Shown: one piece after another, positions 2,921 to 51,866 of the stretch
How the letters are laid out: each line of letters starts with the position of its first letter
Position numbering within the stretch: the stretch's first letter is position 1
Sequence record: NC_041871.1
Reading direction: 5' to 3' (one strand)
From: Escherichia phage Murica
Length of the DNA stretch: 64,000 nucleotides
Position numbers and translations under genes: made by a program
Notes under the pieces: model-generated
Told to the model about the DNA's origin: nothing
The model's database searches: none
Seen by the model: the letters and a program-made list of their open reading frames with translations, nothing else

Positions 2921-4105
2921 TTAAGCTTTAGCCAAAATGGCGCTAAACTCTTCACCAAACTCTTTTACAATCTTCATCAGGTTTGGGTATGCTTTGATCA
3001 GCTGAGCAACAATCTTGTCACGCCCTTTACCGATAAGCAAGGCATTTCCTAAGGCATTAGGTTTCATCATCGCCATAAAGACTGAGAATACAAAATCTCG
3101 GTTCTCGTCCTTGAAGTTTTCCCAAAGGAAATCGAGGAAGTTTGCCACGCAGCTGACAAGATCTTCGTCTGAGATACTTGCATTTTCCATCATATTGCGA
3201 ATAGCGATACAACCTTCAGATCCAAGAATCCACAAAATGTCTGGCTGCTTAGGACCTACGTATTCTTTGCAGCCACCTGCCATAATCCGACCGATTTCCG
3301 GTAAATTACGTTTCTTGGTGTGGTAAGTCCAGATCTCTACCGCTGCAGTGTGACCAATAGCACCTTGTAGAAGAACACGGGCCATAGCGTCAGAAATAAT
3401 ACCGCTGTCAAAATCGTGCAAGATGTCAGATGCAGCAACCCAAGATCGTGGTGTGGCAAAAGATGGACAATTAATCTCAGCCATAGCCTCATAATTATCA
3501 ATAGCTGATGGAACTCTTTTCAGATACCCAATTACAGAGGAGTGAACCCCGTTGAGGAATGCGTAGTCCTCAATAAACACCTCTGCATTGCTTGTAACCT
3601 CTACAATGATAAAACGGTTAGCCAGAGGGGCTTCGAGCGCCGAAAGAACCGCACCATCTGTAGAACGGTTACCCGCAGCCACAAAAACAGAACCCTTAGG
3701 GAATGCATAGGTGCCGCACTTGTGGTCAAGCATAATTTGCATTGCAACCTTTTGCAGGTAGTTATCTGCATGAGTGAGCTCATCCAGAAAGATAATTCCG
3801 CTCCAGTCAGGATCCGCAGGCCAAAATTCTGGAATTGCAAACACTGTACGTGTAGTTCCATCCGCTTCTACAGGGATAGGTAGCCCAGATAAGTCGGCAG
3901 GATCTTTATCTGACAGTCGCACGTCAACAAGGTTGTCATCTCGCTCACCGAACATATTATCAGCGATCTGCTTCATCACCTGGCTTTTACCCACACCCAT
4001 TGGTCCCAAAATTAGGACAGATCGGCTATGACGTTGGGCAAACTGAATAATAGCTGGCAACTCACGGACAGTGATTTGACCACTTTCGAATACGTTTCTT
4101 GACAT
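2921..4105 (-). CDS. AAA+ ATPase, MoxR/CbbQ/CobS-like (AAA_5-type)
   Basis: Walker A GPMGVGKS, Walker B IIFLDEL, sensor-1-like VAAGN. 394 aa. Confidence 0.7.
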   Translation of the reverse strand: MSRNVFESGQITVRELPAIIQFAQRHSRSVLILGPMGVGKSQVMKQIADNMFGERDDNLVDVRLSDKDPADLSGLPIPVEADGTTRTVFAIPEFWPADPDWSGIIFLDELTHADNYLQKVAMQIMLDHKCGTYAFPKGSVFVAAGNRSTDGAVLSALEAPLANRFIIVEVTSNAEVFIEDYAFLNGVHSSVIGYLKRVPSAIDNYEAMAEINCPSFATPRSWVAASDILHDFDSGIISDAMARVLLQGAIGHTAAVEIWTYHTKKRNLPEIGRIMAGGCKEYVGPKQPDILWILGSEGCIAIRNMMENASISDEDLVSCVANFLDFLWENFKDENRDFVFSVFMAMMKPNALGNALLIGKGRDKIVAQLIKAYPNLMKIVKEFGEEFSAILAKA

Positions 4106-4374
4106 TAGTAAAAGTCCTCTACTTGTGTGTAAGTGTTTTCAAAGTTTTCCAAAACAGATATCACATCGAATCTGTCAATATCATACGTGACTCTCCAGTT
4201 GTACGCAACCCTTTCTGCTGTTGCCTCTTCTGGCGCTAGTCGTCTGCTGGCATAAAAGAGTGTTGGAGTACACTTTCTTGCTTGCCCTCTAACTTTCCCA
4301 TAATAATATCTGTGAATATCTTTGTCAAAATTTAACTCTTTTTCTGCACGAAGTTCATATTGCTGGTATAACAT
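4105..4374 (-). CDS. hypothetical protein, 89 aa
   Basis: ORF in operon context; start overlaps the upstream stop (translational coupling). Confidence 0.4.
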   Translation of the reverse strand: MLYQQYELRAEKELNFDKDIHRYYYGKVRGQARKCTPTLFYASRRLAPEEATAERVAYNWRVTYDIDRFDVISVLENFENTYTQVEDFY

Positions 4375-4418
4375 CTCTACTACTCCTTAAGCAGCATCCT
4401 TGCCGCCATTCCTGCCCA

Positions 4419-4799
4419 CTAAAATGCAGTCCGAATCCAGACAAGGTTCTTATCTGCCCAATCATAGAGGCAAGTCATTGCACTATTGAATTGCTCACAC
4501 GGAGGATAATCTTCTTCCATCTGGCGCATAGCAGAGCCTTGTGGGTAAAGCTCCCGTGCTGCAAACCACGCGTCGTAGTCATCAACGGTGTCGAAGTAGT
4601 ATACAACATCCTCTAACTCAGGATCGAACTTTGAACTATCAGGATCCAGTTGTTCAGGGAACTTGGAGCGTAACTTGCCAGCCACAATACTTGCCAACTC
4701 GCTAACATGCTTATTGTCCCACTCCACTAGCTTCCCGTCTTCAGTGATGCGTCCTAACCACTGATCATGAAGGTCAACTGTTGTCTTCCACTGAGCCAT
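4419..4799 (-). CDS. hypothetical acidic protein, 126 aa
   Basis: ORF in a compact early operon; D/E-rich composition. Confidence 0.45.
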   Translation of the reverse strand: MAQWKTTVDLHDQWLGRITEDGKLVEWDNKHVSELASIVAGKLRSKFPEQLDPDSSKFDPELEDVVYYFDTVDDYDAWFAARELYPQGSAMRQMEEDYPPCEQFNSAMTCLYDWADKNLVWIRTAF

Positions 4800-4801
4800 T
4801 A

Positions 4802-5059
4802 TCAGTCCACCTCTTCTTCTCGTTGTAGTTCAAGATACCCGTAGGTCTGGACATCTTGAAGGGTGTGGAACTCCCCCTCTGCCGCTAAGGCACGAACAAC
4901 TTGGCACAAAACCTTATGAGGAACTTCATCCAAACCTAGATTCAGTGCAGGAAACACCTTATCTAAGTCAACAAAATAAACGAACTGTAGCTCACCAGCT
5001 TCAAAAGGTGTATCTTCAATAAACATCTTCTCGGCATTAGTCAAGATCTGCACTTTCAT
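4802..5059 (-). CDS. hypothetical acidic protein, 85 aa
   Basis: ORF, tightly packed; acidic C-terminus (QREEEVD). Confidence 0.4.
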   Translation of the reverse strand: MKVQILTNAEKMFIEDTPFEAGELQFVYFVDLDKVFPALNLGLDEVPHKVLCQVVRALAAEGEFHTLQDVQTYGYLELQREEEVD

Positions 5060-5707: not shown

Positions 5708-6603
5708 ACCCTCGCATAAATTAAACTTGTATCAGTATACTTCTTTAATGGGTAAATATCCTGTCCATAGATGCAATCATTAAACACCTCATCTACCCAA
5801 AGGCTACACTTATATCCCATCATTTCTAAAACACCCATCTCTTCTTCGGTAAACTTATCACCGCTCTTGCAAGATGTCAATACCTCATTCTGAACTCTTG
5901 CTACCTCGAAGCGGTTATTGGCAATATCGCTATTGGCGATCAAATACTCACCTAGAGGGTGTGCGGCATTAAAGATGCACAGTGGACGGCTGACGTAATA
6001 GTCTCCAGGTGTATAAAAATTGTTGAGGTCTTTCACTAGAACATTCTTATCAGTCACTTCATTTATAACATCATGCATATCGCACATCTTTATATGTTTG
6101 AGGATTCCATCCCCCATCACAAAATAAAAACTTGCTGAGACACTTTCGGCATAGATCTTACTAGATCCGTTGTAGTTGTATTTTACTCGGATGCTAACGG
6201 GGGTTTTTCCTGTCGCGTTAGCCATCATCCAAAGAAATGGCAGCTCATACTTCTCCTCTGAGGAAACAAAAGGTGAGGTAGCCAGAGATCGAAAACCTCC
6301 AGAGAAGTTGAAAGTTACAGAACCGCTCCGGCGGTATGATACCGCGTATTCTACTTTTATATCGACATACCCATTGGAATAGGTGTGTCCTTCATTATCT
6401 AAATATGTCCACTTATCAGACCCAGATACCAATCTACGCTCAATAACCTTCATCACTATAGGAATTAATGGGTTGGTACAAACCGCTTTTGAAGTAGCTT
6501 TATCATCTAAAGCCTCGTAAATTGCAGAAAGGATGTCCCCAGCTGAAAGATTGGTTGTTATGTCCTGTTTCCACCGCGTACTAAAACTGTTAAGATTTGC
6601 CAT
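5704..6603 (-). CDS. hypothetical protein, 299 aa (first gene of the minus-strand accessory operon)
   Basis: ATG at 6601-6603 preceded by AGGAG; sits directly downstream of the minus-strand promoter. Confidence 0.5.
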   Translation of the reverse strand: MANLNSFSTRWKQDITTNLSAGDILSAIYEALDDKATSKAVCTNPLIPIVMKVIERRLVSGSDKWTYLDNEGHTYSNGYVDIKVEYAVSYRRSGSVTFNFSGGFRSLATSPFVSSEEKYELPFLWMMANATGKTPVSIRVKYNYNGSSKIYAESVSASFYFVMGDGILKHIKMCDMHDVINEVTDKNVLVKDLNNFYTPGDYYVSRPLCIFNAAHPLGEYLIANSDIANNRFEVARVQNEVLTSCKSGDKFTEEEMGVLEMMGYKCSLWVDEVFNDCIYGQDIYPLKKYTDTSLIYARV

Positions 6604-6643
6604 AAGTAAGTGCTCCTATGTTAGTTTTCTTTCGAATGGGTGC

Positions 6644-6672
6644 ACTATATTGTGGAGTTAGAGTAAAGTCAA
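6644..6672 (-). promoter_or_regulatory. sigma70-like promoter, TTGACT-N17-TATAGT, minus strand
   Basis: -35 is reverse complement of 6667-6672, -10 is reverse complement of 6644-6649, 17-nt spacer; about 40 nt upstream of the 6603 start. Confidence 0.55.
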
Positions 6673-6685
6673 CACGTTTTTGATG

Positions 6686-6714
6686 TTGACATCTGTTGAG
6701 ACAATTGATACGAT
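6686..6714 (+). promoter_or_regulatory. sigma70-like promoter, TTGACA-N17-TACGAT with TG extended -10, plus strand
   Basis: TTGACA at 6686-6691, 17-nt spacer, TACGAT at 6709-6714 preceded by TGA; upstream of ATG 6746. Confidence 0.5.
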
Positions 6715-6745
6715 TTCTTCACTTACAGAGCACGAGAGACGACTC

Positions 6746-7723
6746 ATGAATCTTGAAAAATATTATACACCAGAAGAGTTAGAGCGCTTGCTCAAAAAAT
6801 ATAGACGCAAACAGAATAACGCACGGAAACGAGATATAGAGTTCGACCTGTCATGGGAAGAATACCTCCTATTTGGTAAAAAACTTTTAGGAGATGGAGT
6901 ATGCGACTATACCCTTATACCTTTTGACATGCACACAGATGAAAACGGGCTGGGGAATCCTTTCTACCCATCCCTGGAGCGGATAGATGATGAAGGTCCT
7001 TATGCGGTTGATAACTGTTGTGTGGTGGGATTGAGATGCAACTCTCTAAAGGACTGTCTGGTAGATAAAAAGACTGCAGTCTTGATTAAAGACGAAACTG
7101 ATCGAAAAATTGTCCAGCAGATGATGCTCCACCTGAGCGAAGAGCGTATGGAGAAATTGAAAGGTGATTATACTTTTGAAGATTTCATCTTGCAATATGG
7201 AACGGAAGAGGATAAACTAGCACTCTTTGACGAAGAAGAGGAGGAAGATATGCTACCGATGTCTAAAGTTACTTATCGTGCACCCAAGAAGCACATTTCC
7301 GACATTGTAAACGAGCCTATCACAGAAGAGATTGAAGAAATGACGCAACAGGTGCATGAAGAGGAAAAAGAGACTCAGGAGGTCGAAGAGGAGCTTACAG
7401 AAGAGGTTCCTGCACTACCTGATGATGTTGAGATTGCCAAAGCTTACACTTTCTATTGTCAAACGTTCTACGATGTAGGTATGAAAGTTGATCTGTCGTT
7501 CAGCCAATTTAAGAGTTCGTATATTCGCAAATGCTGTGCTTTAACTGGTGAACGTCTTGGAGCTGGACTTAAACCCCTGTTGGTGACCGACTGGAATAAA
7601 GGTTTCACTAAAGGAAACTTTATGGTAGTATCTCCAATTATGGAGAAAGCTATGACAGATCTTATGAAGACCACCCGCATGACAATGACCGAGTTGGCAG
7701 GTATTTTCAAACACGTTAAATAA
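6746..7723 (+). CDS. hypothetical protein with an internally duplicated Cys-containing domain and an acidic linker
   Basis: Track ORF starts at TTG 6680 inside the promoter; re-called to ATG 6746 (GAGAG upstream). Both halves share the pattern D-x-x-F/L-x-x-S ... G-x-Y ... N-x-x-V. Contains copy B of the 29-bp repeat internally (…MLPMSKVTYRAP…). Confidence 0.5.
   Translation: MNLEKYYTPEELERLLKKYRRKQNNARKRDIEFDLSWEEYLLFGKKLLGDGVCDYTLIPFDMHTDENGLGNPFYPSLERIDDEGPYAVDNCCVVGLRCNSLKDCLVDKKTAVLIKDETDRKIVQQMMLHLSEERMEKLKGDYTFEDFILQYGTEEDKLALFDEEEEEDMLPMSKVTYRAPKKHISDIVNEPITEEIEEMTQQVHEEEKETQEVEEELTEEVPALPDDVEIAKAYTFYCQTFYDVGMKVDLSFSQFKSSYIRKCCALTGERLGAGLKPLLVTDWNKGFTKGNFMVVSPIMEKAMTDLMKTTRMTMTELAGIFKHVK
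7254..7282 (+). repeat. 29-bp exact repeat, copy B
   Basis: Identical to the reverse complement of 5392-5420; encodes the same peptide MSKVTYRA. Confidence 0.9.
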
Positions 7724-19446: not shown

Positions 19447-21192
19447 TTAACGTTGTGCAATTACTACGTCTACGATATCACCAACACCACAATACGTTAA
19501 TTGCAGCAAGGTAACACTGTTAGCCCTGTTGTTAATAACAGGTGTTGCCGACAGGATAGCATACTTATCGTGCAAAGTCACGTTGTGACCTACAGCATCC
19601 TGAATTACATAGATAACCGCAGTGAACGGATAAGGTTTATCTTCCGCTGATGTCCCAGGCCACTGCCCTATTGTAAAATCCCCTTTAGCGTGGACAACAT
19701 ACATACTGGCCTGCCCGTTAGGTGTCCATGTCCCACTGGACGCGTCAACCTCCTCTAAATCGAAATCTACCTTCCCTGCGTGGAAAGTAGGGGCAGTGAT
19801 GGTTTTACCAGCCTCAATTTCTTGAGAGGTGGTTATCTTACCACTGGAGTTAATGCCATTACAGACAAAGTTGACATTAGAGAAGTCTGGCAGCCATCCG
19901 GTCACCGTGCCGGATATTTCAAGGTTGTGAACAGAGGTGGTGCCAGTCCCTGCTGCGTTTAAACTGACATCTCCATTTACCTGCAAGTTGCGGGTAACGT
20001 TGCAGTTTTCAGAGTTTGCAGTTGTTGCAGTTAAAGTGGTTGTTGTCAGCTCGGTAATTACACCTTTGTTGGCTGTAAGCCCTTCTCCTTCAAAAGTTGC
20101 ACGCTCATTGACTCTTAAGGTATTCAGAGCTATGTTTTGGATAGAGGCCGTACCTCGAATAACTACAGACCCGCCAACCTCCAAATCACCATTTATTAAT
20201 GCGTCACCCGTGCTTTCAATATAGCTAGGGTAGATCATGGTGCCATCTACAGAGTAGGTTATCCCTGTAACGGTGCCTGTCACCTCAAGGTTCTTAACCC
20301 TGGTGGTCCCATCGACCTGCAATGTCGGTTCGGTTGCTGACTTCATGGCATTACCACGAATGTACACGTAGTCAAAAAAGTTATTACCCAGACCATCAAA
20401 ATGCACATCGTTATTATTAGCCACTGGTTTCCCGGAAGTTATAGTGTCAGCTATAATCCTGTGGGTGGACACTTCATGAGGTTGCAGCTCTGTGCTTCTC
20501 CAGTCTGCATGCTTAGGATCGCTCCACGCAAAAGTGAGTGTAGAAGTATTTGCCGTGAGGATTAGGTTCCTGAAGCGTGCAGTAGAATCTGCTCCATTAA
20601 CAGGCCCATGTAAGGTAAGGGTGCCTCCAACTATGGTGTTGGCGAGTTCTGTAAGACCTTTTACCACCAAAGACCCTACAGTAACTTTCATCCCCTCCAT
20701 GGCTTCAAATATGCTATCAACATAGTCAACAACAAACTCTGTGTTTGCTATAGACTCTGACTTATCGTCCATTGGAGGTGTAGGTACTCGCGGGTCACCT
20801 TCGAACCTTGGGCTGTTAAGTTTTGCGTAATATTTTGCCATTACTGCAGAATCGGTGTATAATCTCCAGTTTGGAGATTGTGAAGGATCTGCTGGCATTC
20901 TAACCGGGTTAGATTTTGATGCTGCGGGAGCGTACCACCACTGAGGGCCTGTGTCCCCTTTAAACTCATACAGCTGGTTAAAAACTGTTGTGGATGCACC
21001 ATACGCCCAAGGGATCGGTGGCGTTTTAAAATAAAGGTTGTCAAGCATGGCTTTTCGTACCGTAGGGATGGTGGTCCCATCCTCTACGACAACTTCATCC
21101 ACAGCGTTACCGTTGACAACCAAGTGCAAACGTTCAGAATCAACAATTACTTGATCTACCGCCTGCTCAAAGCTTGTCATGTCTTGCGCCAT
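19447..21192 (-). CDS. tail fiber-like protein, 581 aa
   Basis: Position in the fiber cluster; Thr/Gly/Asn-rich repetitive composition. Confidence 0.4.
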   Translation of the reverse strand: MAQDMTSFEQAVDQVIVDSERLHLVVNGNAVDEVVVEDGTTIPTVRKAMLDNLYFKTPPIPWAYGASTTVFNQLYEFKGDTGPQWWYAPAASKSNPVRMPADPSQSPNWRLYTDSAVMAKYYAKLNSPRFEGDPRVPTPPMDDKSESIANTEFVVDYVDSIFEAMEGMKVTVGSLVVKGLTELANTIVGGTLTLHGPVNGADSTARFRNLILTANTSTLTFAWSDPKHADWRSTELQPHEVSTHRIIADTITSGKPVANNNDVHFDGLGNNFFDYVYIRGNAMKSATEPTLQVDGTTRVKNLEVTGTVTGITYSVDGTMIYPSYIESTGDALINGDLEVGGSVVIRGTASIQNIALNTLRVNERATFEGEGLTANKGVITELTTTTLTATTANSENCNVTRNLQVNGDVSLNAAGTGTTSVHNLEISGTVTGWLPDFSNVNFVCNGINSSGKITTSQEIEAGKTITAPTFHAGKVDFDLEEVDASSGTWTPNGQASMYVVHAKGDFTIGQWPGTSAEDKPYPFTAVIYVIQDAVGHNVTLHDKYAILSATPVINNRANSVTLLQLTYCGVGDIVDVVIAQR

Positions 21193-21201
21193 GATTTCTC
21201 C

Positions 21202-21468
21202 TTAAGCTTTTTGCTCTTCGTTTTTAACGTGGTCAGGGTGCTGGCAACCCCACCGGAGCGAGATGAATTTGCTAATAAGCTGGGGGCAAGCTACTGAAGG
21301 CGCGTATATCCACGCATACCATTCAGGTAGCGTATCATTATACCCCATATGAATAAACACCCCAGTCATCACCGCCATGCCTATGTTAGACCATAGCTTA
21401 GATTGGGACACTTTCGTAGGGTCATCAGATGCCGCAACCAGTCCCCATAAAAACTGAGTTAGTTTCAT
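21202..21468 (-). CDS. small hydrophobic protein, 88 aa
   Basis: Two hydrophobic segments (NIGMAVMTGVFIHMGY; WYAWIYAPSVA). Confidence 0.3.
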   Translation of the reverse strand: MKLTQFLWGLVAASDDPTKVSQSKLWSNIGMAVMTGVFIHMGYNDTLPEWYAWIYAPSVACPQLISKFISLRWGCQHPDHVKNEEQKA

Positions 21469-21479
21469 TTACCCTCTTT

Positions 21480-22523
21480 TTAAGCATAAGATATAGTGAT
21501 CCATTGACCATTTACAAGTTTTTGGATAGCACCTGTCCAGTAATCACCTTGATAAGGGTGTTTATAAGCGTAGTTACCAGAGCACATCACATGTCCAGGG
21601 TAGACTCTTGACTCTCTGTAGGTGGTTTTGAAACGGTTTGCTATCCTTACGTCATCAACCCCTCTGCTGGGCATAGGGATAGTAAGGTTACCACTACTGT
21701 CTGCGCCGTTACCATTTACCCTGCGGACCACGTTTCTTCCACCAACTGTTGCATATTGACCCCTGACTGTTTCATCGTTACAATCAACTCTTCCACCTAT
21801 TTGAGCGCTTCCGCAGGATTGTTGTCCGTTAACAGTGGCTCTTGGTATCGTGACCGCATTGGCATTTGCAGAGGAACTTTTTGCATCGTTGCATTCAAGA
21901 TTTCCTTGGATAGCCAGTCTTGCACGGTTGGCAGTTATAGCATTGAGCTTCATAGCCGAAAACACAGGCTGCCCACCAGAAGGTTGAAATCTCCAACGGA
22001 ACCCGTCTATTTGGTGAGAAGGATCATCAAGGTCTGTGCCGTCAGCACCACCGATGTTGTCCATAATCCAGAAATCCATCGTCGTCTTGTCTGGAGTTAT
22101 GGTGGTATATATTGCCGCATTGTCTGTTGACGCAGATGCAAACTCGATTCTTTGAAGACCTAAAGTTTGAGTCTGAGTCATTATGTCTCCAGACTTGTCA
22201 ACATACAGATCGTCCATTTCTTCAGGCGAGTATACATTGAGAACTTGACGTGCAGCAGCTTTGTCTGGAACGTCTGCTAGATTATTAGTGACCCTTAAGA
22301 ATCTATTATCCCATCCTGGGACAACATCTTCTGTTAGATGCTTTAACCACGCAGAAAGCATGTGAAGTTCAAAGTTAACAACTTCACATGCCACTCTTTG
22401 TGTCATATCCCAACCTTTCAATCTCTCTTCTTTTTTTGGTTGAGACTTATTCAACTCTCCTGTATTTTCAAGCACAACATCCTGATTGGCCCAAATATCA
22501 AGAGGGATAACTGGTTTAGTCAT
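21480..22523 (-). CDS. tail fiber protein, paralog A (347 aa)
   Basis: Homologous over N- and C-terminal regions to 23538-24578 (N-terminus …PLDIWA…; C-terminus QKLVNGQWITISYA). Confidence 0.5.
   Translation of the reverse strand: MTKPVIPLDIWANQDVVLENTGELNKSQPKKEERLKGWDMTQRVACEVVNFELHMLSAWLKHLTEDVVPGWDNRFLRVTNNLADVPDKAAARQVLNVYSPEEMDDLYVDKSGDIMTQTQTLGLQRIEFASASTDNAAIYTTITPDKTTMDFWIMDNIGGADGTDLDDPSHQIDGFRWRFQPSGGQPVFSAMKLNAITANRARLAIQGNLECNDAKSSSANANAVTIPRATVNGQQSCGSAQIGGRVDCNDETVRGQYATVGGRNVVRRVNGNGADSSGNLTIPMPSRGVDDVRIANRFKTTYRESRVYPGHVMCSGNYAYKHPYQGDYWTGAIQKLVNGQWITISYA
21495..21524 (-). repeat. 30-bp exact direct repeat at the 3' end of the fiber gene (copy 1)
   Basis: AGTGATCCATTGACCATTTACAAGTTTTTG is identical at 23553-23582. 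Confidence 0.85.
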
Positions 22524-22581
22524 CGCGTTCTCCTGAGAAAATTCCTTAGGACTATTTTAACACTTTAGAGAACAAAATGCA

Positions 22582-22603
22582 AGAACGGAGTCCTTTCCGT
22601 TCT
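22582..22603 (-). terminator. rho-independent terminator after the 22613-22927 gene
   Basis: Stem AGAACGG/CCGTTCT with an 8-nt loop, followed on the minus strand by TGCATTTTGTT. Confidence 0.5.
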
Positions 22604-22612
22604 GACCTTTGT

Positions 22613-22927
22613 TTACCTTTTACTATGCTCTACGAGCATGTGCAAAATCTTTTGTACATCGGCTCTGATGCCGGAGACATCTGTCCTGACATCCTGCTTA
22701 AGGTCGTTAATATCGGCCTCTAGCTTGCTTAACCGGGTCTCTATAACGGAATCAAGTTTATCTTTTGTAACCATACTGTTTTTCACTAAGATGAGGTCTT
22801 TCTCCAGCTCATCCAACCTCTTGGAAATGCCTTTCCATTTGGTGTGCCACTGGTTGAAAGCCCATACACAGATCGGGACAACGGTACCCATGCAGATACC
22901 GTACAATGCCGCCAAATCCAACTCCAC
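22613..22927 (-). CDS. small membrane-anchored coiled-coil protein, 104 aa
   Basis: N-terminal hydrophobic segment followed by a heptad-like charged region. Confidence 0.4.
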   Translation of the reverse strand: MELDLAALYGICMGTVVPICVWAFNQWHTKWKGISKRLDELEKDLILVKNSMVTKDKLDSVIETRLSKLEADINDLKQDVRTDVSGIRADVQKILHMLVEHSKR

Positions 22928-22938
22928 AACACCTCCTC

Positions 22939-23523
22939 TTAGAGGGTAGGTCGCTCCGGGAAGAAAATGTCAGGGGCTTTAGATGTATCTATTTCAAGAA
23001 GTTTTACCCTGTACATTTTCAAATCTCTGATGTTACGTTTCTGGTCATCAGTAAGATCATATTCAAGGTCAATCATGTCTTGATAGGCACCAATTCTAGC
23101 AGTAGCCCAAGCAAGTTCTGTCTCTATGACACCCTCTGCCTGTTGAACAAAGAATTCATTGTCTGTGACAAATTCATCACCAACTAAACGCAAAGCGTCG
23201 TGGTGAAGCATAATGTTTTCTGGTACCTCTTCTTTTTTGGCGATAACCACACGAAGACCTGGAGCAGGCCATAAGGCATCAGGTTCTTCTGTAGATGTCT
23301 TAAGAATTCCCTTCTCGTCAACAAGTAGGAAGATACAACCTGGATTTTCTTGTCGTAATGTTCGTGACTGCACATACCAATCACCATCATCATTACGTAA
23401 AAAATACCCAGTGTATGCGGTGTAATCCTCGACCTCTTGAGGGGTCAGCTCCTTGGTTTCCTTGTTGGAGTGGTATTCGCCAGATCCCGGTTGGTAAAGT
23501 TTAAACTCTTGAAGTATTTTCAT
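22939..23523 (-). CDS. tail fiber assembly chaperone (Tfa-like)
   Basis: C-terminal pattern …YRVKLLEIDTSKAPDIFFPERP resembles the conserved Tfa C-terminus (…YR..L..D.S.APDI.WP..P); sits directly downstream of a fiber gene. Confidence 0.6.
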   Translation of the reverse strand: MKILQEFKLYQPGSGEYHSNKETKELTPQEVEDYTAYTGYFLRNDDGDWYVQSRTLRQENPGCIFLLVDEKGILKTSTEEPDALWPAPGLRVVIAKKEEVPENIMLHHDALRLVGDEFVTDNEFFVQQAEGVIETELAWATARIGAYQDMIDLEYDLTDDQKRNIRDLKMYRVKLLEIDTSKAPDIFFPERPTL

Positions 23524-23537
23524 GCTAGTCCTCCGAT

Positions 23538-24578
23538 CTATGCATAATTAACAGTGATCCATTGACCATTTACAAGTTTTTGTAAAGGTCCTGCCCAGTA
23601 GGTTGAACCACGCATCTCTTTTTTGTCACCGAAATGCCAGCCTGTGACAACGTATCCGTTGCGGATTGGAGATTCAGAAACGCCGTCCACAAGTCTTGCA
23701 CCGATTCTGATGTCTTGCACACCTGTCTGCGGGATAGTGATCGTTACATCACCGTTACCGTTAGCCGTCACTCCATTCACGGAGCGCACCACATTTCTGT
23801 TGCCGACAACACAGTGCTGGCTTCTTACAACCATACTGTCACAACTTGCACCACCATTAACATATACTGACCCAGCCGTCAACTGACTGGCCACATTACA
23901 GTTGGTGAATGTTGCTGTATTGCTGATAGTAAGGTTATTGCACCTCATGTTATCAACAACTTCAACATTGCCTACCACTTTCAACAGCGCACGATTAGCC
24001 GTGATCGCGTTAAGGTACATCAAAGTGAACTCTGGATTAATATCCGGCTGAGTTGGCTGGAATCTCCAACGAAACGCATCTACTGTAGATGTACCACCAT
24101 CATCAAACGGCCCGGTATTATCACTTAACCCAAAGTCGAGGGTTGTCTTATCTGGGCCAATAGTTGTCTCTATCCAAGCCTTATCTGTCTCGGCAGCTTT
24201 AAAGTTGATACGTTGCAACCCCAAAGGGCCTGTCATTGTATCACCTGTAACTTTTACATACCTGGCGTCTGCCTCTTCCTTAGTGATAATCCCAAGGTTT
24301 CTACGGGCAACAGGAATGTTCAAAAGATCGCTCAAGTTATTATCACGTACCAGATAACGGCCTTCTTGAGCTGGGATCTGCTCGTCAGCAATGTATTTTG
24401 CCCAAGTCCCGAGCATATTGAAAATATAGTTAAGTTCTTCACATGAGGGCTTTTGACCAAGATCCCAACCTTTTCTCCACAAATCATCAATCGGGCGTAG
24501 CCTGTTCTGTCTGTGGGTGTTAGGCAGAACCTGATCCTCCTCTGCCCAAATCTCTAATGGAAAACTAGGTTTTGACAT
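23538..24578 (-). CDS. tail fiber protein, paralog B (346 aa)
   Basis: Paralog of 21480-22523; followed by the Tfa-like chaperone. Confidence 0.55.
   Translation of the reverse strand: MSKPSFPLEIWAEEDQVLPNTHRQNRLRPIDDLWRKGWDLGQKPSCEELNYIFNMLGTWAKYIADEQIPAQEGRYLVRDNNLSDLLNIPVARRNLGIITKEEADARYVKVTGDTMTGPLGLQRINFKAAETDKAWIETTIGPDKTTLDFGLSDNTGPFDDGGTSTVDAFRWRFQPTQPDINPEFTLMYLNAITANRALLKVVGNVEVVDNMRCNNLTISNTATFTNCNVASQLTAGSVYVNGGASCDSMVVRSQHCVVGNRNVVRSVNGVTANGNGDVTITIPQTGVQDIRIGARLVDGVSESPIRNGYVVTGWHFGDKKEMRGSTYWAGPLQKLVNGQWITVNYA
23553..23582 (-). repeat. 30-bp exact direct repeat (copy 2)
   Basis: Identical to 21495-21524. Confidence 0.85.
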
Positions 24579-24590
24579 TTTATCTCCTGA

Positions 24591-26663
24591 TTATGAGAAG
24601 TCTGGCGGGACAACATCTTCTACATACCCTTTCAGAGCAACCTGCCCCATATGAAGCACGGTAGAATCTCTAGCGGTAACAGTGATGCTGTCAGACATTA
24701 CTTGCGGGTATGCCCACACATACTGTTTTACCTCAGGATATCTATACTCTATAGTTGCCATGTTTCCGCAAATACATCTCCATAAAAATTCTTGGTAATT
24801 CCTGGTTGGGTCGTAACCATATACCGGAGCAAGCTCTTTACTAGGAACGAACCCTGCAAGGTATTGTATTTCAGACGGTTGCCAACCTAACTTAACGATA
24901 GGTATGTTTACAGACTCTTTTGCCTTTTCAATACCTCCCTGCATCACCCAATCGTAGCACTCGGTGCAGAAGAAATCAAGAGCACCTGCTTCCTTTTTAT
25001 ATTGGTCAGCAAGGTTAAGCTTTTGCGTAAGCTCGGTTTCCATAATGGTTGGGAAAAACAGCAGAGCTGTCATCTGAGCTGATGCAGCGTGTGCCTTTAT
25101 TGCCTTTGAAATAGCCGCAATACGAGCGCCAAGCTTACCACGACAAAATGCTACATACTTATCGTAAACACCTCCAGTTTTAGGATCGTCAATAGTCCCA
25201 ATATCTAATGCATACTCGCCTGTCTCATCATAAAACGCCTGTTTTGTAGGGTAATCATAAATACAAGGTCTACGAGTATCGGTATTGTACCACCACCACG
25301 GTTCACCAACCTGCATAATCACTGGCAGGTTGTTTCTCATAGCGGCTGATGCAAAATTCTTAAATACTGCAGTAAGGAAATTCATACCCTCTTCAATGGT
25401 TGGAGACAGGAGGTAGCTACAAGGTGTATACCCTGTTTTAGCGTAGTTATCGTTCCAGTCTCTTTGGGTCCATTCCAACGGGCAGGCATCGCTGAAAAGC
25501 TCAAAACTTACAGATTGCATAACGTCGAAGTTATGTCGTTTGGCATTGTACATAAAATCATCATGCCATTTATAAGCTGCAGCGTTTAGCGCTCCTGTTC
25601 TGTTTATAGACCATTGGGTTCCTGACCATGTGTAGTCATAATAATGACTCATACCAACATAATGGTTTATGGTTCCGGTATAGCCCAGACGCTTGATATT
25701 GTTCAACACCCTTAAAGGAGACACGTTCCACATATCGTCATATGCGGTGCAGATCCCAACATCGTGCTCTCTCACCTGGATATTGTTAAGTTGCATCATT
25801 TTCCAGCCTGTGTCTGGCTGAAGCAGATCTAGGCGCAACTCACACTCTACATTTTCCGTTCTCGGGTCTGTGCTATTACTTACCCAGTCTTTAGGCATAA
25901 GCGGTATTAAAATCCTTCTCACCTGCCGAGGATCAACACCCATCATGTTGTTGTTCTGGTCCATCCCGACGCAGTCCTCAAAATCAATATGAATTTCTGC
26001 AACATTCTTATCCTCTGAGATGCTGACAGCATATTGAGCTAAAGGAACATAGATGATTGTGCCATCAACAAGGTCTACAGTCATAATCATCTTTTCAGGA
26101 GTGGAGAAGTTGCTGGCGTTGGTTATTGACATTCTGAACCAAAGCTTGGTGTTTCTCATCTCATAGTGATCATCAAACCCAATACCGAAATGGTCATACT
26201 TGTCAACTGTTTCCCAAATGCACCCAGCCATACCTCCATATGTTCTTGACACTAAACGGTTAATACAACAGTTGTTATCTGCAACAATACAGGTACTTTC
26301 AGTCTGCTGAGTGGTTGTAACCCAATATCTTGGGTGAAACATTCTCTCCTCAATAGTATCCCAAGATATCCTGTCAAGATTCTCATCTGAAACTATTGTA
26401 CATTTCGCCCTTTGTGTTCCAATCATCACCCCTTGAGATTTTGATGAAAACTCCATAAAGAAGCTTCTTGGCAACCTGTTGGGTAATTTGTCAACAATTT
26501 CCACGGGGATCTCAATACTGGTTGCCCCAACTGGGATAGTTACATCGCCCTCAACATGATCATAATCCCTACCAGGAACGGCAGTATCCTGAACTGTTCG
26601 GTAATGAAACCGTGCAGCCATTGTAGAGTAATCACGGTAAGGTTTAAAAACAGCTGTTGCCAT
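24591..26663 (-). CDS. structural (fiber/baseplate-associated) protein with N-terminal Calx-beta-like domain, 690 aa
   Basis: N-terminal AVPGRDYDHVEGDVTIPVGATSIEIPVEIVD resembles Calx-beta; position between baseplate-like genes and fiber genes. Confidence 0.4.
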   Translation of the reverse strand: MATAVFKPYRDYSTMAARFHYRTVQDTAVPGRDYDHVEGDVTIPVGATSIEIPVEIVDKLPNRLPRSFFMEFSSKSQGVMIGTQRAKCTIVSDENLDRISWDTIEERMFHPRYWVTTTQQTESTCIVADNNCCINRLVSRTYGGMAGCIWETVDKYDHFGIGFDDHYEMRNTKLWFRMSITNASNFSTPEKMIMTVDLVDGTIIYVPLAQYAVSISEDKNVAEIHIDFEDCVGMDQNNNMMGVDPRQVRRILIPLMPKDWVSNSTDPRTENVECELRLDLLQPDTGWKMMQLNNIQVREHDVGICTAYDDMWNVSPLRVLNNIKRLGYTGTINHYVGMSHYYDYTWSGTQWSINRTGALNAAAYKWHDDFMYNAKRHNFDVMQSVSFELFSDACPLEWTQRDWNDNYAKTGYTPCSYLLSPTIEEGMNFLTAVFKNFASAAMRNNLPVIMQVGEPWWWYNTDTRRPCIYDYPTKQAFYDETGEYALDIGTIDDPKTGGVYDKYVAFCRGKLGARIAAISKAIKAHAASAQMTALLFFPTIMETELTQKLNLADQYKKEAGALDFFCTECYDWVMQGGIEKAKESVNIPIVKLGWQPSEIQYLAGFVPSKELAPVYGYDPTRNYQEFLWRCICGNMATIEYRYPEVKQYVWAYPQVMSDSITVTARDSTVLHMGQVALKGYVEDVVPPDFS

Positions 26664-27349
26664 TAACCCTCCTGTCTAGTTGCGTTTACTGTAATACTTT
26701 CACAATAAATGGTTGTGGTGTCCCAATCAGGTCTTACGTCAGGAACATATAGCAAAGTAGCCAGCCCACCAACTCCGAATTGGTTTTCTTCCCACACTGA
26801 TCCGAAGCCAAGAGCTGTAGAGTCCCCTTCAAAACCAAAAGCTTGCCCTTGCGATTCTGTAAGACGCAAATGACAAGGTAATGGTAGCATATCTAAGATC
26901 TGATCGATAGACTGCAATATGTCAAAGCAAGTTTTTCTAATATTTATGTCAAACCTGAAGTTGTCTCCTTTCCACGTATCGAAATTGTCTCTTCCGAACA
27001 ATTGTCGCAAGGTGGAGATGACATCTTCGCGAGTCCCGCCCCTTGATGCTGCGGCCTGCTGAATAATTAGTGTGGCACGAAAATCAGCATCTGAAAGTCC
27101 ATTCCTAAGAATACCAAGTTGATTACCAACTTCGTCAAGGTATCTTCCGCTGGCATTGTTAAGCAATCTTCCTTCAGCCAAACCTACCAGCATCTTATCA
27201 ACATCCTCCAACCTTTTAAGGTATACGGTTAAGAATGTGACTAAATTAACCTTCTCAGCCAGAAAATCTCCAGGCAGGTAGTCAAGACCTCCCTGAACAA
27301 AATCTGGCAGAGTGTGGATGTGATTAACATCCGACTTAATCTCTGCCAT
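26663..27349 (-). CDS. putative baseplate/tail protein, 228 aa
   Basis: Coupled to the upstream baseplate-J-like gene; assigned by gene order only. Confidence 0.3.
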   Translation of the reverse strand: MAEIKSDVNHIHTLPDFVQGGLDYLPGDFLAEKVNLVTFLTVYLKRLEDVDKMLVGLAEGRLLNNASGRYLDEVGNQLGILRNGLSDADFRATLIIQQAAASRGGTREDVISTLRQLFGRDNFDTWKGDNFRFDINIRKTCFDILQSIDQILDMLPLPCHLRLTESQGQAFGFEGDSTALGFGSVWEENQFGVGGLATLLYVPDVRPDWDTTTIYCESITVNATRQEG

Positions 27350-27360
27350 ATCTCGCCGCC

Positions 27361-28851
27361 TTAAATAGTTTGTTGGAAAGTTATATTACTTTCGTCGAGG
27401 TCAAACACCTCGGTCATGTTCGCAACAATATCGTTTGTAGTGTAAGCTTCATCAGAAGCTCCTACGGATTTAACTTGAATTACCAGCCTATTAAATCTAC
27501 CTATTGACACAGCAGCAGATGCAGCACCTACCAATTGGATATTATACAACGTATCTGCAACATCCAGTCCGTTAACAACCTGCAAAAGAGCCTCTATAAT
27601 GGCATCTTTTTCGGTTGTAGAAAGCGCAGCACCGGAGTAGGTAATTCTTACATCTAGGCGGTAGGTGTTTGCCTTGGAGTAATAAATTCTTTCAGTTTGA
27701 CCGTCAGATGTAGTGACATCGTAGAAAATATTACCATAAGTCCTGTTCGTACAGGCTATAGTTTGGTAAAGTGCTTGGCAAATGTCTTCTGTTGCACCAC
27801 CAAACACAACCACTTGGAACTTGTAAGGAGGTATACCTTTAGCATCAGTTTTATCGGTGTTGTTGGAGAACACTCTCACTTTCTCAACACCTTTCACCTC
27901 GCTTACAGCGCTAAGGATTGCAGGACGGGTAGCCTTAGATGTTAACTGTTTTGTGCTGGAAGCTCTTAAGCGATACTCTGAGTCTTTCTCAACATCCCTG
28001 CCCTCATTGAATCTTTCTCGGTTGGTAAGCTTGATAAATCCACTAGGAGTAGGTGACATTGTTGTCACGGTTTCTGCTTCTCTTGACAGCTCACCAGCCT
28101 CGTTAGCGATAACATCCAGTGTGATAGTTCTTTCCCCTACAATCGGGGATACTCTGAAATCTACCCTACTGTTAAGTCCAACTTGATCAAGATTCGAATT
28201 GTACCCTATCCACAACGTTCCTGTCAACATATCGATCTGAATCAAATCGTCGTTCAACAGGGTTGTATTATCGACAATGAATTGCTTAATCTCTCCGTAA
28301 AAGCTTGGCAAATCAGAAGAGTCCAGAGATTTATCTGTTAAAACCAGGCTTTTTGTTTTGATACTTCCATCTGTCTGGTTGGTAATTTGGAAGTTGTATT
28401 TCCCAATCCTTAGGTCTGGAGCATTTATTCTGTGAGCAATAAGATTCCCTGCTACTTGCACATCGTTGCTAAGAACAAAGTTGCCACTGTCCAGCGTATA
28501 AGTTTTGGAATCATAAATCATATTGTACGGCACAGTTGTGTTGATTGTCAACTGGCAGGTACCTGATGATTTAGAACGGCCTCTTCGGTAAATACCCTGT
28601 CTTCCAAGAAGCTCATCTAGGTAAATACCTTCTGCCCCATACAGCGTCTGTGATGCGTATACAGATGCTGCCATAAGAATAAGTTGATACTCTCGCTCGT
28701 TGAAGATAGTGGTCAGCTTATCTGCAACGGAGTTACTCTGTACGTTGAAGTTTTCGCCAAAAGCACGGATCAGGCTTTGCTTAGTTTCAACGATTAGGTC
28801 ATTTAGGGTTGGTATAACGAAACCAGCCTCTGTCAATCCATACTTAGCCAC
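27361..28851 (-). CDS. putative baseplate wedge protein (J/gp6-like), 496 aa
   Basis: Size and position in the tail module; no diagnostic motif. Confidence 0.35.
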   Translation of the reverse strand: MAKYGLTEAGFVIPTLNDLIVETKQSLIRAFGENFNVQSNSVADKLTTIFNEREYQLILMAASVYASQTLYGAEGIYLDELLGRQGIYRRGRSKSSGTCQLTINTTVPYNMIYDSKTYTLDSGNFVLSNDVQVAGNLIAHRINAPDLRIGKYNFQITNQTDGSIKTKSLVLTDKSLDSSDLPSFYGEIKQFIVDNTTLLNDDLIQIDMLTGTLWIGYNSNLDQVGLNSRVDFRVSPIVGERTITLDVIANEAGELSREAETVTTMSPTPSGFIKLTNRERFNEGRDVEKDSEYRLRASSTKQLTSKATRPAILSAVSEVKGVEKVRVFSNNTDKTDAKGIPPYKFQVVVFGGATEDICQALYQTIACTNRTYGNIFYDVTTSDGQTERIYYSKANTYRLDVRITYSGAALSTTEKDAIIEALLQVVNGLDVADTLYNIQLVGAASAAVSIGRFNRLVIQVKSVGASDEAYTTNDIVANMTEVFDLDESNITFQQTI

Positions 28852-28884
28852 GTCACTCCTCCGGTATGAAAATCTCTACAAGGT

Positions 28885-28913
28885 ATTTTACCAAATTTTG
28901 TAACAATAGTCAA
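28885..28913 (-). promoter_or_regulatory. sigma70-like promoter TTGACT-N17-TAAAAT with TGG extended -10
   Basis: -35 is reverse complement of 28908-28913, -10 is reverse complement of 28885-28890, 17-nt spacer; follows a terminator. Confidence 0.55.
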
Positions 28914-34124: not shown

Positions 34125-34155
34125 TGTGCCTCCAGGTTAAACAATCATGATAGTT

Positions 34156-34184
34156 ATTTTACCAGATTTTAAGTTAATACGCAA
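34156..34184 (-). promoter_or_regulatory. sigma70-like promoter TTGCGT-N17-TAAAAT with TGG extended -10
   Basis: Same -10 context (TGGTAAAATA) as the promoter at 28885-28913. Confidence 0.5.
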
Positions 34185-48266: not shown

Positions 48267-48309
48267 TTTATAGCATCCTTATTAGTCATGTTGTGCACCA
48301 TATTTGTGT

Positions 48310-48338
48310 ATTTTACCATGATTATGGTGCATTGTCAA
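48310..48338 (-). promoter_or_regulatory. sigma70-like promoter TTGACA-N17-TAAAAT with TGG extended -10
   Basis: -35 is reverse complement of 48333-48338, -10 is reverse complement of 48310-48315; about 45 nt upstream of ATG 48266. Confidence 0.5.
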
Positions 48339-51825: not shown

Positions 51826-51866
51826 TAATGTATTTTACCACAAAGATACATCAAAAGCAACAATTT

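Follow-up and report, generated by a model that had tools for sequence, protein, structure and literature searches.

Paralogous short tail fibre genes around a single Tfa-type chaperone gene in an rV5-like Escherichia phage, with evidence for recurrent conversion of their tip-coding ends

Results

Gene content of the short tail fibre locus

The window studied here is a stretch of 64,000 nucleotides (nt) of Escherichia phage Murica (NC_041871.1). It contains two short tail fibre (STF) genes, which we name STF-A and STF-B, together with a gene for a tail fibre assembly (Tfa) chaperone. A preliminary description had placed two fibre genes at 21480-22523 and 23538-24578, with a Tfa-like chaperone and a small membrane/coiled-coil protein between them. 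This gene content was confirmed: the fibre open reading frames (ORFs) lie on the minus strand and encode 347 and 346 amino acids (aa), respectively, and the intervening genes encode proteins of 194 and 104 aa. The 7.3 kb around the locus are 99.2% identical at the nt level to rV5_ev146 and to the BASEL phage CarlMeissner, and 117 phage records, nearly all Vequintavirus, match the locus at 90-99% identity. To judge from its 98-99% identity to genomes of the rV5 group, the window is that of an rV5-like E. coli phage (Vequintavirus). STF-B, the 104-aa protein, the chaperone and STF-A correspond to rV5 ORFs 30, 31, 32 and 33, respectively. The features on which the analysis is based are the following.

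23538-24578, minus strand: STF-A, short tail fibre of 346 aa, rV5 gp33 (ORF; phrog_4465, E 3e-171)
24255-24578, minus strand: predicted N-terminal baseplate-docking domain of STF-A, codons 1-108 (match to phiTE STF residues 1-111)
23541-23723, minus strand: tip module of STF-A, codons 286-346, Mu-gpS-like (5yvq match; incongruent tip phylogeny)
23553-23582, minus strand: 30-nt tract in STF-A, codons 333-342, encoding QKLVNGQWIT (identical to 21495-21524)
22939-23523, minus strand: Tfa assembly chaperone of 194 aa, rV5 gp32 (PF02413; phrog_136)
22613-22927, minus strand: 104-aa protein, rV5 gp31, phrog_5345 (one N-terminal hydrophobic segment, then a coiled coil)
21480-22523, minus strand: STF-B, second short tail fibre paralog of 347 aa, rV5 gp30 (phrog_4465, E 4e-166)
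21483-21662, minus strand: tip module of STF-B, codons 288-347 (in the rV5 lineage its loops, about codons 293-330, differ strongly from those of STF-A)
21495-21524, minus strand: 30-nt tract in STF-B (identical to 23553-23582)

Every gene of the locus is on the minus strand. In the direction of transcription the order is baseplate wedge genes, a 690-aa fibre gene, STF-A, the chaperone gene, the 104-aa gene, a gap of 89 nt and STF-B, followed by genes for an 88-aa protein, a 581-aa fibre and a 1,878-aa fibre. The chaperone gene comes directly after STF-A, and the 690-aa fibre gene stands between STF-A and the wedge genes. STF-B is found two genes beyond the chaperone gene and has no adjoining chaperone gene of its own.

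The fibre cassette itself is already known. As early as 2013, Kropinski et al. (PMC3606486) detected gp30, gp32 and gp33 in rV5 virions, reported 42.3% identity between gp30 and gp33, and suggested recognition of 'two chemotypes of LPS' (lipopolysaccharide). Maffei et al. (2021; PMC8594841, S5D Fig) described the 'short tail fiber locus' of Vequintavirinae sensu stricto, noted that its fibres are without considerable allelic variation from genome to genome, and placed the terminal receptor in the LPS outer core; in BASEL phages STF-A is annotated 'short tail fiber protein'. The genes analysed here are the same, with paralogous fibres 42-43% identical, the chaperone between them and all three of these proteins present in virions. 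Neither paper describes the 30-nt tract, gene conversion between the paralogs, the replacement of a 157-aa gene or a hairpin and promoter-like motif upstream of gp30, and no report of these was found elsewhere in the literature searched, the coverage of which was incomplete. What is added here is modest: evidence that the tips evolve in concert, the location of the actual recombination joint, the replacement of a 157-aa gene and a likely separate promoter for STF-B.

The fibre genes are full-length paralogs with patchy divergence

STF-A and STF-B are homologous over their full length (43% identity, E 5e-94), which bears out the duplication proposed earlier. In blocks of 20 residues identity is 60% at residues 1-20, ~25-35% at 21-100, 45-65% at 101-214, ~20-25% at 215-250, 65% at 251-270, ~25-40% at 271-330 and 75% at 331-346. 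The best kept blocks are residues 1-20, 119-210, 251-270 and 331-346, and the poorest are 215-250 and 291-330. Comparison with orthologues of other genera showed that residues 119-210 are where A and B are specifically most alike (58%, versus 39-48% to Av-05). The divergence is patchy and a central block is among the best conserved parts, which is not the arrangement of conserved ends around a divergent centre that had been suggested.

Residues 1-108 of STF-A match the phiTE STF (9cuy) with E 1.4e-19, and with E 1.6e-26 in a profile comparison; residues 1-83 of STF-B match it with E 1.3e-9. Homology to the phiTE STF, indicative of an N-terminal wedge-docking domain, was found in both fibres (profile E 5e-31), and N-terminal residues that are invariant across genera are kept in STF-B as in STF-A. 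In phiTE the STF N-terminus wraps onto the wedge, and residues 3-92 have been modelled attached to it. Fibre III of phi92, gp147, hangs from the wedge, was proposed to serve in irreversible adsorption, and was compared by the authors of that work with Mu gp49 and the phiTE fibre. By its gene position, STF-A is orthologous to the one short tail fibre that Avunavirus, Seunavirus and phi92-like phages possess; synteny and the phiTE and Mu matches suggest that gp147 is this orthologue in phi92. The two-fibre locus thus has the same N-terminal docking domain as the phiTE STF (PDB 9CUY/9MJN) and phi92 gp147, fibres that point downward and are proposed to mediate irreversible adsorption. Unlike here, both of these are single-copy, and in the flagellotropic phiTE the shaft and tip are much longer (554 aa) and contain immunoglobulin-like domains.

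At the other end of the protein, STF-A residues 286-343 match residues 440-501 of Mu gpS (5yvq; E 1.7e-6), and Salmonella phages have STF-A residues 287-344 in common at 57-59% identity. The STF-A tip module is presumably chaperone-dependent and receptor-binding. In the window the tip loops of STF-B are 36-52% identical in nt to those of STF-A, versus 71-100% in a clade of relatives (L021, L023 and L024) that is described below.

A 30-nt tract is identical between the paralogs on a saturated background

The preliminary description had stated that the last 30 bp of the fibre genes are identical. The exact 30-nt identity is real but stops 12 nt before the stop codon, and the four last codons of STF-A and STF-B, after the tract, differ. 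The two copies form a direct repeat, 2,058 nt apart. STF-A and STF-B have the same residue at 143 positions and use the same codon at 53 of them, where 53.9 are expected from the codon usage of the phage. Codon identity is thus at the random level, which indicates that synonymous sites are saturated between the paralogs. In the tract, 10 successive codons are nevertheless identical, with P = 0.005 in a codon-usage simulation and P = 0.003 upon shuffling, where P refers to the longest identical-codon run anywhere in the gene.

Such a run could be a coincidence of protein conservation and codon preference that involves no recombination. Consistent with this, the peptide motif Q-K/Y-x-V/I-N-G-x-W is conserved across genera, several codons of the tract are common ones, and the P values, only ~0.003-0.005, come from a single-gene test. 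Other genera, however, encode the same motif with different codons. Another explanation would be that the tract is a functional nucleic-acid element, that is, an RNA structure, a translational-coupling signal or a recombinase site. In both genes the tract precedes the stop codon by 12 nt and the next start codon by ~25-30 nt, which would fit such an element. Against this, the tract is polymorphic within the genus at approximately the gene-wide rate, its synonymous variation being about that of the rest of the gene, and FV3-type phages carry a non-synonymous L-to-F change in it. This polymorphism, together with the different codons used by other genera, argues that there is no special nucleotide constraint on the tract. 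Also against an element, the ribosome-binding sites lie beyond the stop codons and are not alike in the two genes, the tract of L021 is only ~64-67% identical between its paralogs, and no recombinase or invertase gene is present among the annotated and scanned genes of the locus.

Tip-coding ends evolve in concert in two-fibre relatives

A search of a large protein collection with STF-B yielded two-fibre relatives, all of them metagenome or read-archive assemblies with the same two-fibre gene order. L018-L020 encode STF-B orthologues at 78% identity and are ~75% identical in nt to the window over 10 kb; L021, L023 and L024 encode orthologues at 46-49% and are ~65-70% identical in nt. These lineages were unrepresented in the phage collection searched, and a scan of IMG/VR gave five loci. 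In L023 the fibre genes are at 3921-4961 and 6001-7056, and the chaperone of the L021/L023/L024 lineage has 205-208 aa and is only 47% identical to that of the window.

Trees were built by neighbour-joining on raw identity with resampling of codons, and support was counted for explicit splits. For codons 1-285, support was 100% for a group of all STF-A, 100% for a group of all STF-B, 100% for A+B versus Av-05/Seunavirus, and 0% for A and B of the L021 clade together. For the tip (codons 288-346) these values were 0%, 0%, 94% and 100%, respectively. Thus, the genes group by paralog over codons 1-285, and by genome in the tips of L021, L023 and L024, as is typical of concerted evolution.

L023 has an exact A/B identity of 110 nt (codons 289-325) against a background identity of ~52%. 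L024 has one of 30 nt at codons 325-334, i.e. at another place than the tract of the window, and L021 shows 78-87% A/B identity over codons 288-332. At the tract itself the exact A/B identity measures 30 nt in the window and rV5, and 29 nt in L018. The L018 tract differs from that of the window by changes of CTT to CTG, GTA to GTC and CAA to CAG, all three of which are present in both L018 paralogs. In addition, at sites with G/S, A/P and K/E variants the two paralogs of L021 vary together, and so do those of L023. Long exact identities and shared lineage-specific synonymous changes on a saturated background are again the signature of concerted evolution. The uncultured L021/L023/L024 lineage has nearly identical tips on both fibres.

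Together, these comparisons show what is best read as gene conversion that recurs in short patches between the paralogs and is limited to the 3' end that encodes the tip; the 30-nt identity of the window would be one such patch. Recurrent tip conversion explains the tract, the incongruent tips and the other identities, which chance or a DNA or RNA element does not. In view of the three synonymous substitutions common to both L018 paralogs, the 110-nt and 30-nt exact identities elsewhere in the tips of other genomes and a tip phylogeny incongruent with the rest of the gene, coincidence appears very unlikely to us. A functional nucleic-acid element we regard as extremely improbable.

STF-B occupies the place of a 157-aa gene

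Downstream of their single fibre gene, Av-05, TH18 and Seunavirus have the chaperone gene, the 104-aa gene, a 157-aa gene, the 88-aa gene and the 581-aa fibre gene. The 157-aa gene (L003 6949-7422, L017 7020-7493, L005 6961-7434, L022 7958-8431) encodes a polytopic membrane protein (phrog_7451; PF26221, Phage_phiTE_239, in precomputed annotation). STF-B lies exactly in its slot (window 21480-22612), and the 157-aa gene is absent from all two-fibre lineages. A search for remnants of it, both in the gap preceding STF-B and in the rest of the 64-kb window, found none.

A neighbour-joining tree of whole proteins left the sisterhood of A and B unsettled; separation of shaft and tip and inclusion of more lineages settled it. 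The 100% splits over codons 1-285, and a deletion of ~31-32 residues that both paralogs share relative to the outgroups, indicate a single duplication, later than the separation from the single-fibre genera (Avunavirus, Seunavirus) but earlier than the divergence of the two-fibre lineages sampled.

Alternatively, STF-B and a promoter of its own could have arrived together from another phage by horizontal transfer, in a moron-like insertion displacing the 157-aa gene. That STF-B takes the place of another gene and has an upstream hairpin and promoter-like motif of its own would agree with this, as would two similarities: STF-A as a whole resembles Av-05 (52%) more than it does STF-B (44%), and residues 71-118 of STF-B are closer to Seunavirus (58-60%) than to STF-A (38%). 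However, A and B form a clade versus Av-05 and Seunavirus over codons 1-285 (100% bootstrap), they have the deletion in common, and their central block is specifically alike. Moreover, no protein closer to STF-B than STF-A is was found outside the two-fibre lineages among 50,697 phage records and a collection of 5.8 billion proteins, the latter by an indexed search that reaches relatives sharing exact 5-residue words. We therefore consider acquisition unlikely, and duplication within the lineage the preferred origin.

Exchange between relatives is joined at the shaft-tip junction

In the genus of the window both fibres are strongly conserved. The Vequintavirus matches listed in tblastn searches have protein identities of at least 98.6% for STF-A and at least 95.7% for STF-B; by identity band, 114 records are at or above 95% for each fibre, and one more STF-B record falls at 90-95%. 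Among the Vequintavirus matches listed there are two fibre-gene places each, and in one case three; other genera have one. The three tblastn places for STF-A are in MN850642.1 (Escherichia phage navn), where the extra one could be a third copy or stem from a terminal repeat of the assembly. Alignment of nine genomes to the window showed overwhelmingly synonymous differences, the most distant genome having 128 nt and 11 aa differences in STF-A, and 112 nt and 17 aa differences in STF-B. Because the fibres are near-identical and differ mostly by synonymous changes, there is, by all appearances, no host-range allele swapping at this locus within the genus, in agreement with Maffei et al. (2021; PMC8594841).

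Recombination does act on the fibre genes. JES2013 (L015; window ~20500-21900) is mostly 0-2.5% diverged from the window but 7-12% diverged, and FV3-like, in the 3' third of STF-B. It is evidently a mosaic that arose by homologous recombination within the genus, reshuffling only near-identical alleles. Outside the genus, Av-05 (L003) and TH18 (L017) show 96-97% identity over 11 kb, interrupted by a single block with sharp limits, which extends from fibre codon ~295 to the ribosome-binding site of the 104-aa gene and comprises the last 60-70 fibre codons and the whole chaperone gene. In L003 this swap is at ~5885-6637, and the TH18 tip resembles that of phiTE.

The shaft-tip junction GV(Q/D)D(I/V)R corresponds to STF-A codons 286-291, and the joints fall at about codons 286-293. 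The conversion tract of L023 begins at this junction. Homology to Klebsiella phages ends at about residue 291, and homology to Salmonella phages and Mu gpS begins at 286-287. The Av-05/TH18 swap, the phylogenetic incongruence of the tip only and these limits of homology indicate that the module exchanged in relatives is, as far as can be read from the alignments, the fibre tip with the chaperone gene, and that its 5' joint is the shaft-tip junction and not the 30-bp tract. The exchange of tip and chaperone together fits the published model of the Mu-type chaperone, which binds the fibre tip through a variable N-terminal domain and drives trimerisation through a conserved C-terminal one (PMC9608196).

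These results bear on the proposal, made in the preliminary description, that the locus consists of interchangeable host-range cassettes in which conserved ends, including the 30-bp tract, act as homology arms for swaps of a central receptor-binding core between phages. Part of it holds: the relatives are mosaic rather than uniformly diverged, JES2013 carries an FV3-type STF-B 3' third, Av-05 and TH18 differ by a clean cassette swap, and tail-fibre homology is modular in other phages. But the centre (residues 119-210) is among the best-conserved parts, the joints are at about codons 286-295 and downstream of the chaperone gene rather than at the gene ends, and no alternative alleles were seen among the Vequintavirus matches listed. 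Recombination between the direct 30-bp copies would, in addition, delete the chaperone gene. The exchangeable unit is the C-terminal tip (approximately the last 60 codons), alone or with the chaperone gene, and the tract is, instead of a landing pad for swaps between phages, a footprint of gene conversion between the paralogs of one genome. For Vequintavirus the cassette proposal is largely refuted, and we give it little credence overall.

Three other arrangements were considered and rejected. An invertible host-range segment (Mu G/P1 C or shufflon-like) is incompatible with direct repeats, the lack of an invertase and two full-length genes; no significant inverted repeat brackets the locus, and no recombinase is encoded among the annotated or scanned genes. 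A diversity-generating retroelement would require a reverse transcriptase and a template/variable repeat pair, neither of which is present. As for a deletion-prone direct repeat, the listed Vequintavirus matches all have at least two fibre-gene places and every record has one chaperone gene.

Candidate transcription signals upstream of STF-B

The gap of 89 nt upstream of STF-B is unusual, as other gene junctions of the fibre locus measure ~10-15 nt. It contains two candidate signals.

22582-22603, minus strand: terminator-like hairpin (-17.5 kcal/mol, z = -4.5)
22553-22562, minus strand: late-promoter-like motif TGTTAAAATA, ~30 nt upstream of the STF-B start codon

In FV3-type genomes the hairpin shows one compensatory change from A-U to C-G. 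The motif TGTTAAAATA has one mismatch to the published rV5 late motif TggTAaAAtA (Kropinski 2013, PMC3606486), and is invariant in 10 Vequintavirus genomes; in L018 and L021, which are much more distant lineages, TGCTAAAATA is found at the same place. These observations suggest that STF-B starts a late transcription unit of its own. Elsewhere in the window the exact rV5 late motif TGGTAAAATA is present at 28884-28893, 34155-34164, 48309-48318 and 51831-51840, always on the minus strand, and with at most one mismatch the motif occurs 20 times, versus 5.9 expected.

The chaperone and the 104-aa protein

The chaperone gene starts 15 nt after the STF-A stop codon. Its product belongs to the Tfa family, with matches to PF02413 (45.7 bits versus a cut-off of 22.1; residues 121-192) and phrog_136 (E 2e-36). 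The Pfam match is C-terminal only, and the more distant members of the genus diverge by 7-14.5% in the 5' third of the gene, versus 1-5% in the rest. A gene directly downstream of a fibre gene that encodes a variable N-terminal and a conserved C-terminal domain corresponds to the modular Tfa organisation described in PMC9608196. The chaperone gene was found at exactly one place per record in 219/219 phage records with a match. A sequence search of the PDB with the chaperone gave only spurious matches.

In every relative examined, phi92-like phages among them, the 104-aa gene comes after the chaperone gene. The protein is annotated as 'membrane protein, 1 TMD' (transmembrane domain) in the rV5 supplement (PMC3606486). 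Its phi92-like homologue (L006 6555-6896) has weak matches to 'lipoprotein' and to Rz-like spanin (E 1e-4 to 5e-4; spanin 5e-4). No embedded lipoprotein ORF was seen for the 104-aa gene, and the Murica genome announcement makes no mention of lysis genes. A function as co-chaperone or as lysis protein would be a guess in either case.

Neighbouring genes and other records

The fibre cassette is flanked by the following genes.

27361-28851 (Baseplate_J) and 26663-27349, minus strand: baseplate wedge genes
24591-26663, minus strand: 690-aa fibre with NCTSP TIM-barrel
21202-21468, minus strand: 88-aa protein, rV5 gp29, phrog_1322 'membrane protein', conserved downstream neighbour

The 88-aa protein is 51% identical to its Av-05 homologue, and a crude hydropathy scan of it gave no segment over threshold. 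Homologues of the 581-aa fibre (window 19447-21192) carry PF26208 and PF26209 (Phage_phiTE_241_N and _C) in precomputed annotation. A local Pfam scan of the 581-aa fibre of the window gave no match; the local Pfam copy may lack these newer models. Finally, 16 records labelled 'Campylobacter phage' (MG065635, MG065672, MG065676 and others) match the rV5-type locus, one of them listed at 98.3%. Campylobacter jejuni is given as host in 15 of these 16, a host assignment that looks doubtful.

Discussion

Taken as a whole, the results are probably best explained by two paralogous short tail fibres with one chaperone, derived from a single duplication and subject to recurrent conversion of their tips. 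According to this explanation both fibres would dock on the baseplate wedge via the same type of N-terminal domain, and the single chaperone would fold both tips. Conversion patches may persist because both tips must stay compatible with one chaperone. In the rV5 lineage the tip loops of STF-B (~codons 293-330) would have escaped conversion, which may have given rise to a second LPS-core specificity for irreversible adsorption.

A more far-reaching version is possible, and we put it forward tentatively. It holds that one virion-retained chaperone serves two different fibres, that recurrent tip conversion keeps both tips foldable, and that lineages differ in how far the second tip has escaped, from the fully diverged loops of rV5-like phages, with a second LPS-core specificity and an own late promoter, to the nearly identical tips of the sister clade.

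Several points weigh against these views. The trees are neighbour-joining trees on raw identity with few taxa. For the STF-B tip, no direct match to Mu gpS was obtained at E <=1, and the tip is linked to it only via the alignment with STF-A. The chaperone dependence of STF-B, and the receptor specificity and baseplate position of each fibre, are what we infer from sequence. The link between conversion and chaperone compatibility is likewise a matter of interpretation, and conversion may simply occur where residual similarity allows. As the tips of the L021 clade are nearly identical, a second specificity cannot be the only reason why the paralog was kept. The diverged N-terminus and shaft of STF-B may matter more than its tip, and may place STF-B at a separate site of the baseplate. 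The promoter and terminator, finally, are candidate signals identified as consensus and covariation matches.

Phage Mu offers the closest parallel for the tip. Compared with Mu GpS and GpU (TfaMu; PDB 5YVQ), the STF-A tip matches gpS and the chaperone is in the same Pfam family, and Mu TFA is present in the virion (PMC9608196), as is rV5 gp32. Mu, through its invertible G segment (S/U versus S'/U'), and rV5-like phages both have two alternative fibre tips in one genome. In contrast to the G segment, however, the repeats here are direct, there is no Gin-type invertase and no inversion switch, and both genes are complete with their own start codons. A further difference from Mu is that virions contain both fibre products, and that a single chaperone takes the place of one for each tip.

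The T-even distal tail-fibre locus (genes 37/38) is another case for comparison, where recombination between conserved motifs reportedly swaps adhesin specificity. The likeness lies in short conserved motifs that serve as joints and in a tip that moves with its cognate chaperone or adhesin. T-even exchange takes place between phages, whereas conversion here would take place within one genome, and the protein families differ.

If the more far-reaching version above is true, the locus would be a natural series of a phage gaining a second terminal receptor with neither an inversion switch nor a second chaperone. Being common and broad in host range, rV5-like phages are candidates for use in therapy and biocontrol, and the short tail fibres are held responsible for the terminal receptor step of these phages. 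The genus shows no natural variation at this step. The joint for retargeting would be the shaft-tip junction, and a tip should be moved together with the chaperone. The paralogs exchange tip sequence within a genome and are thus not evolutionarily independent.

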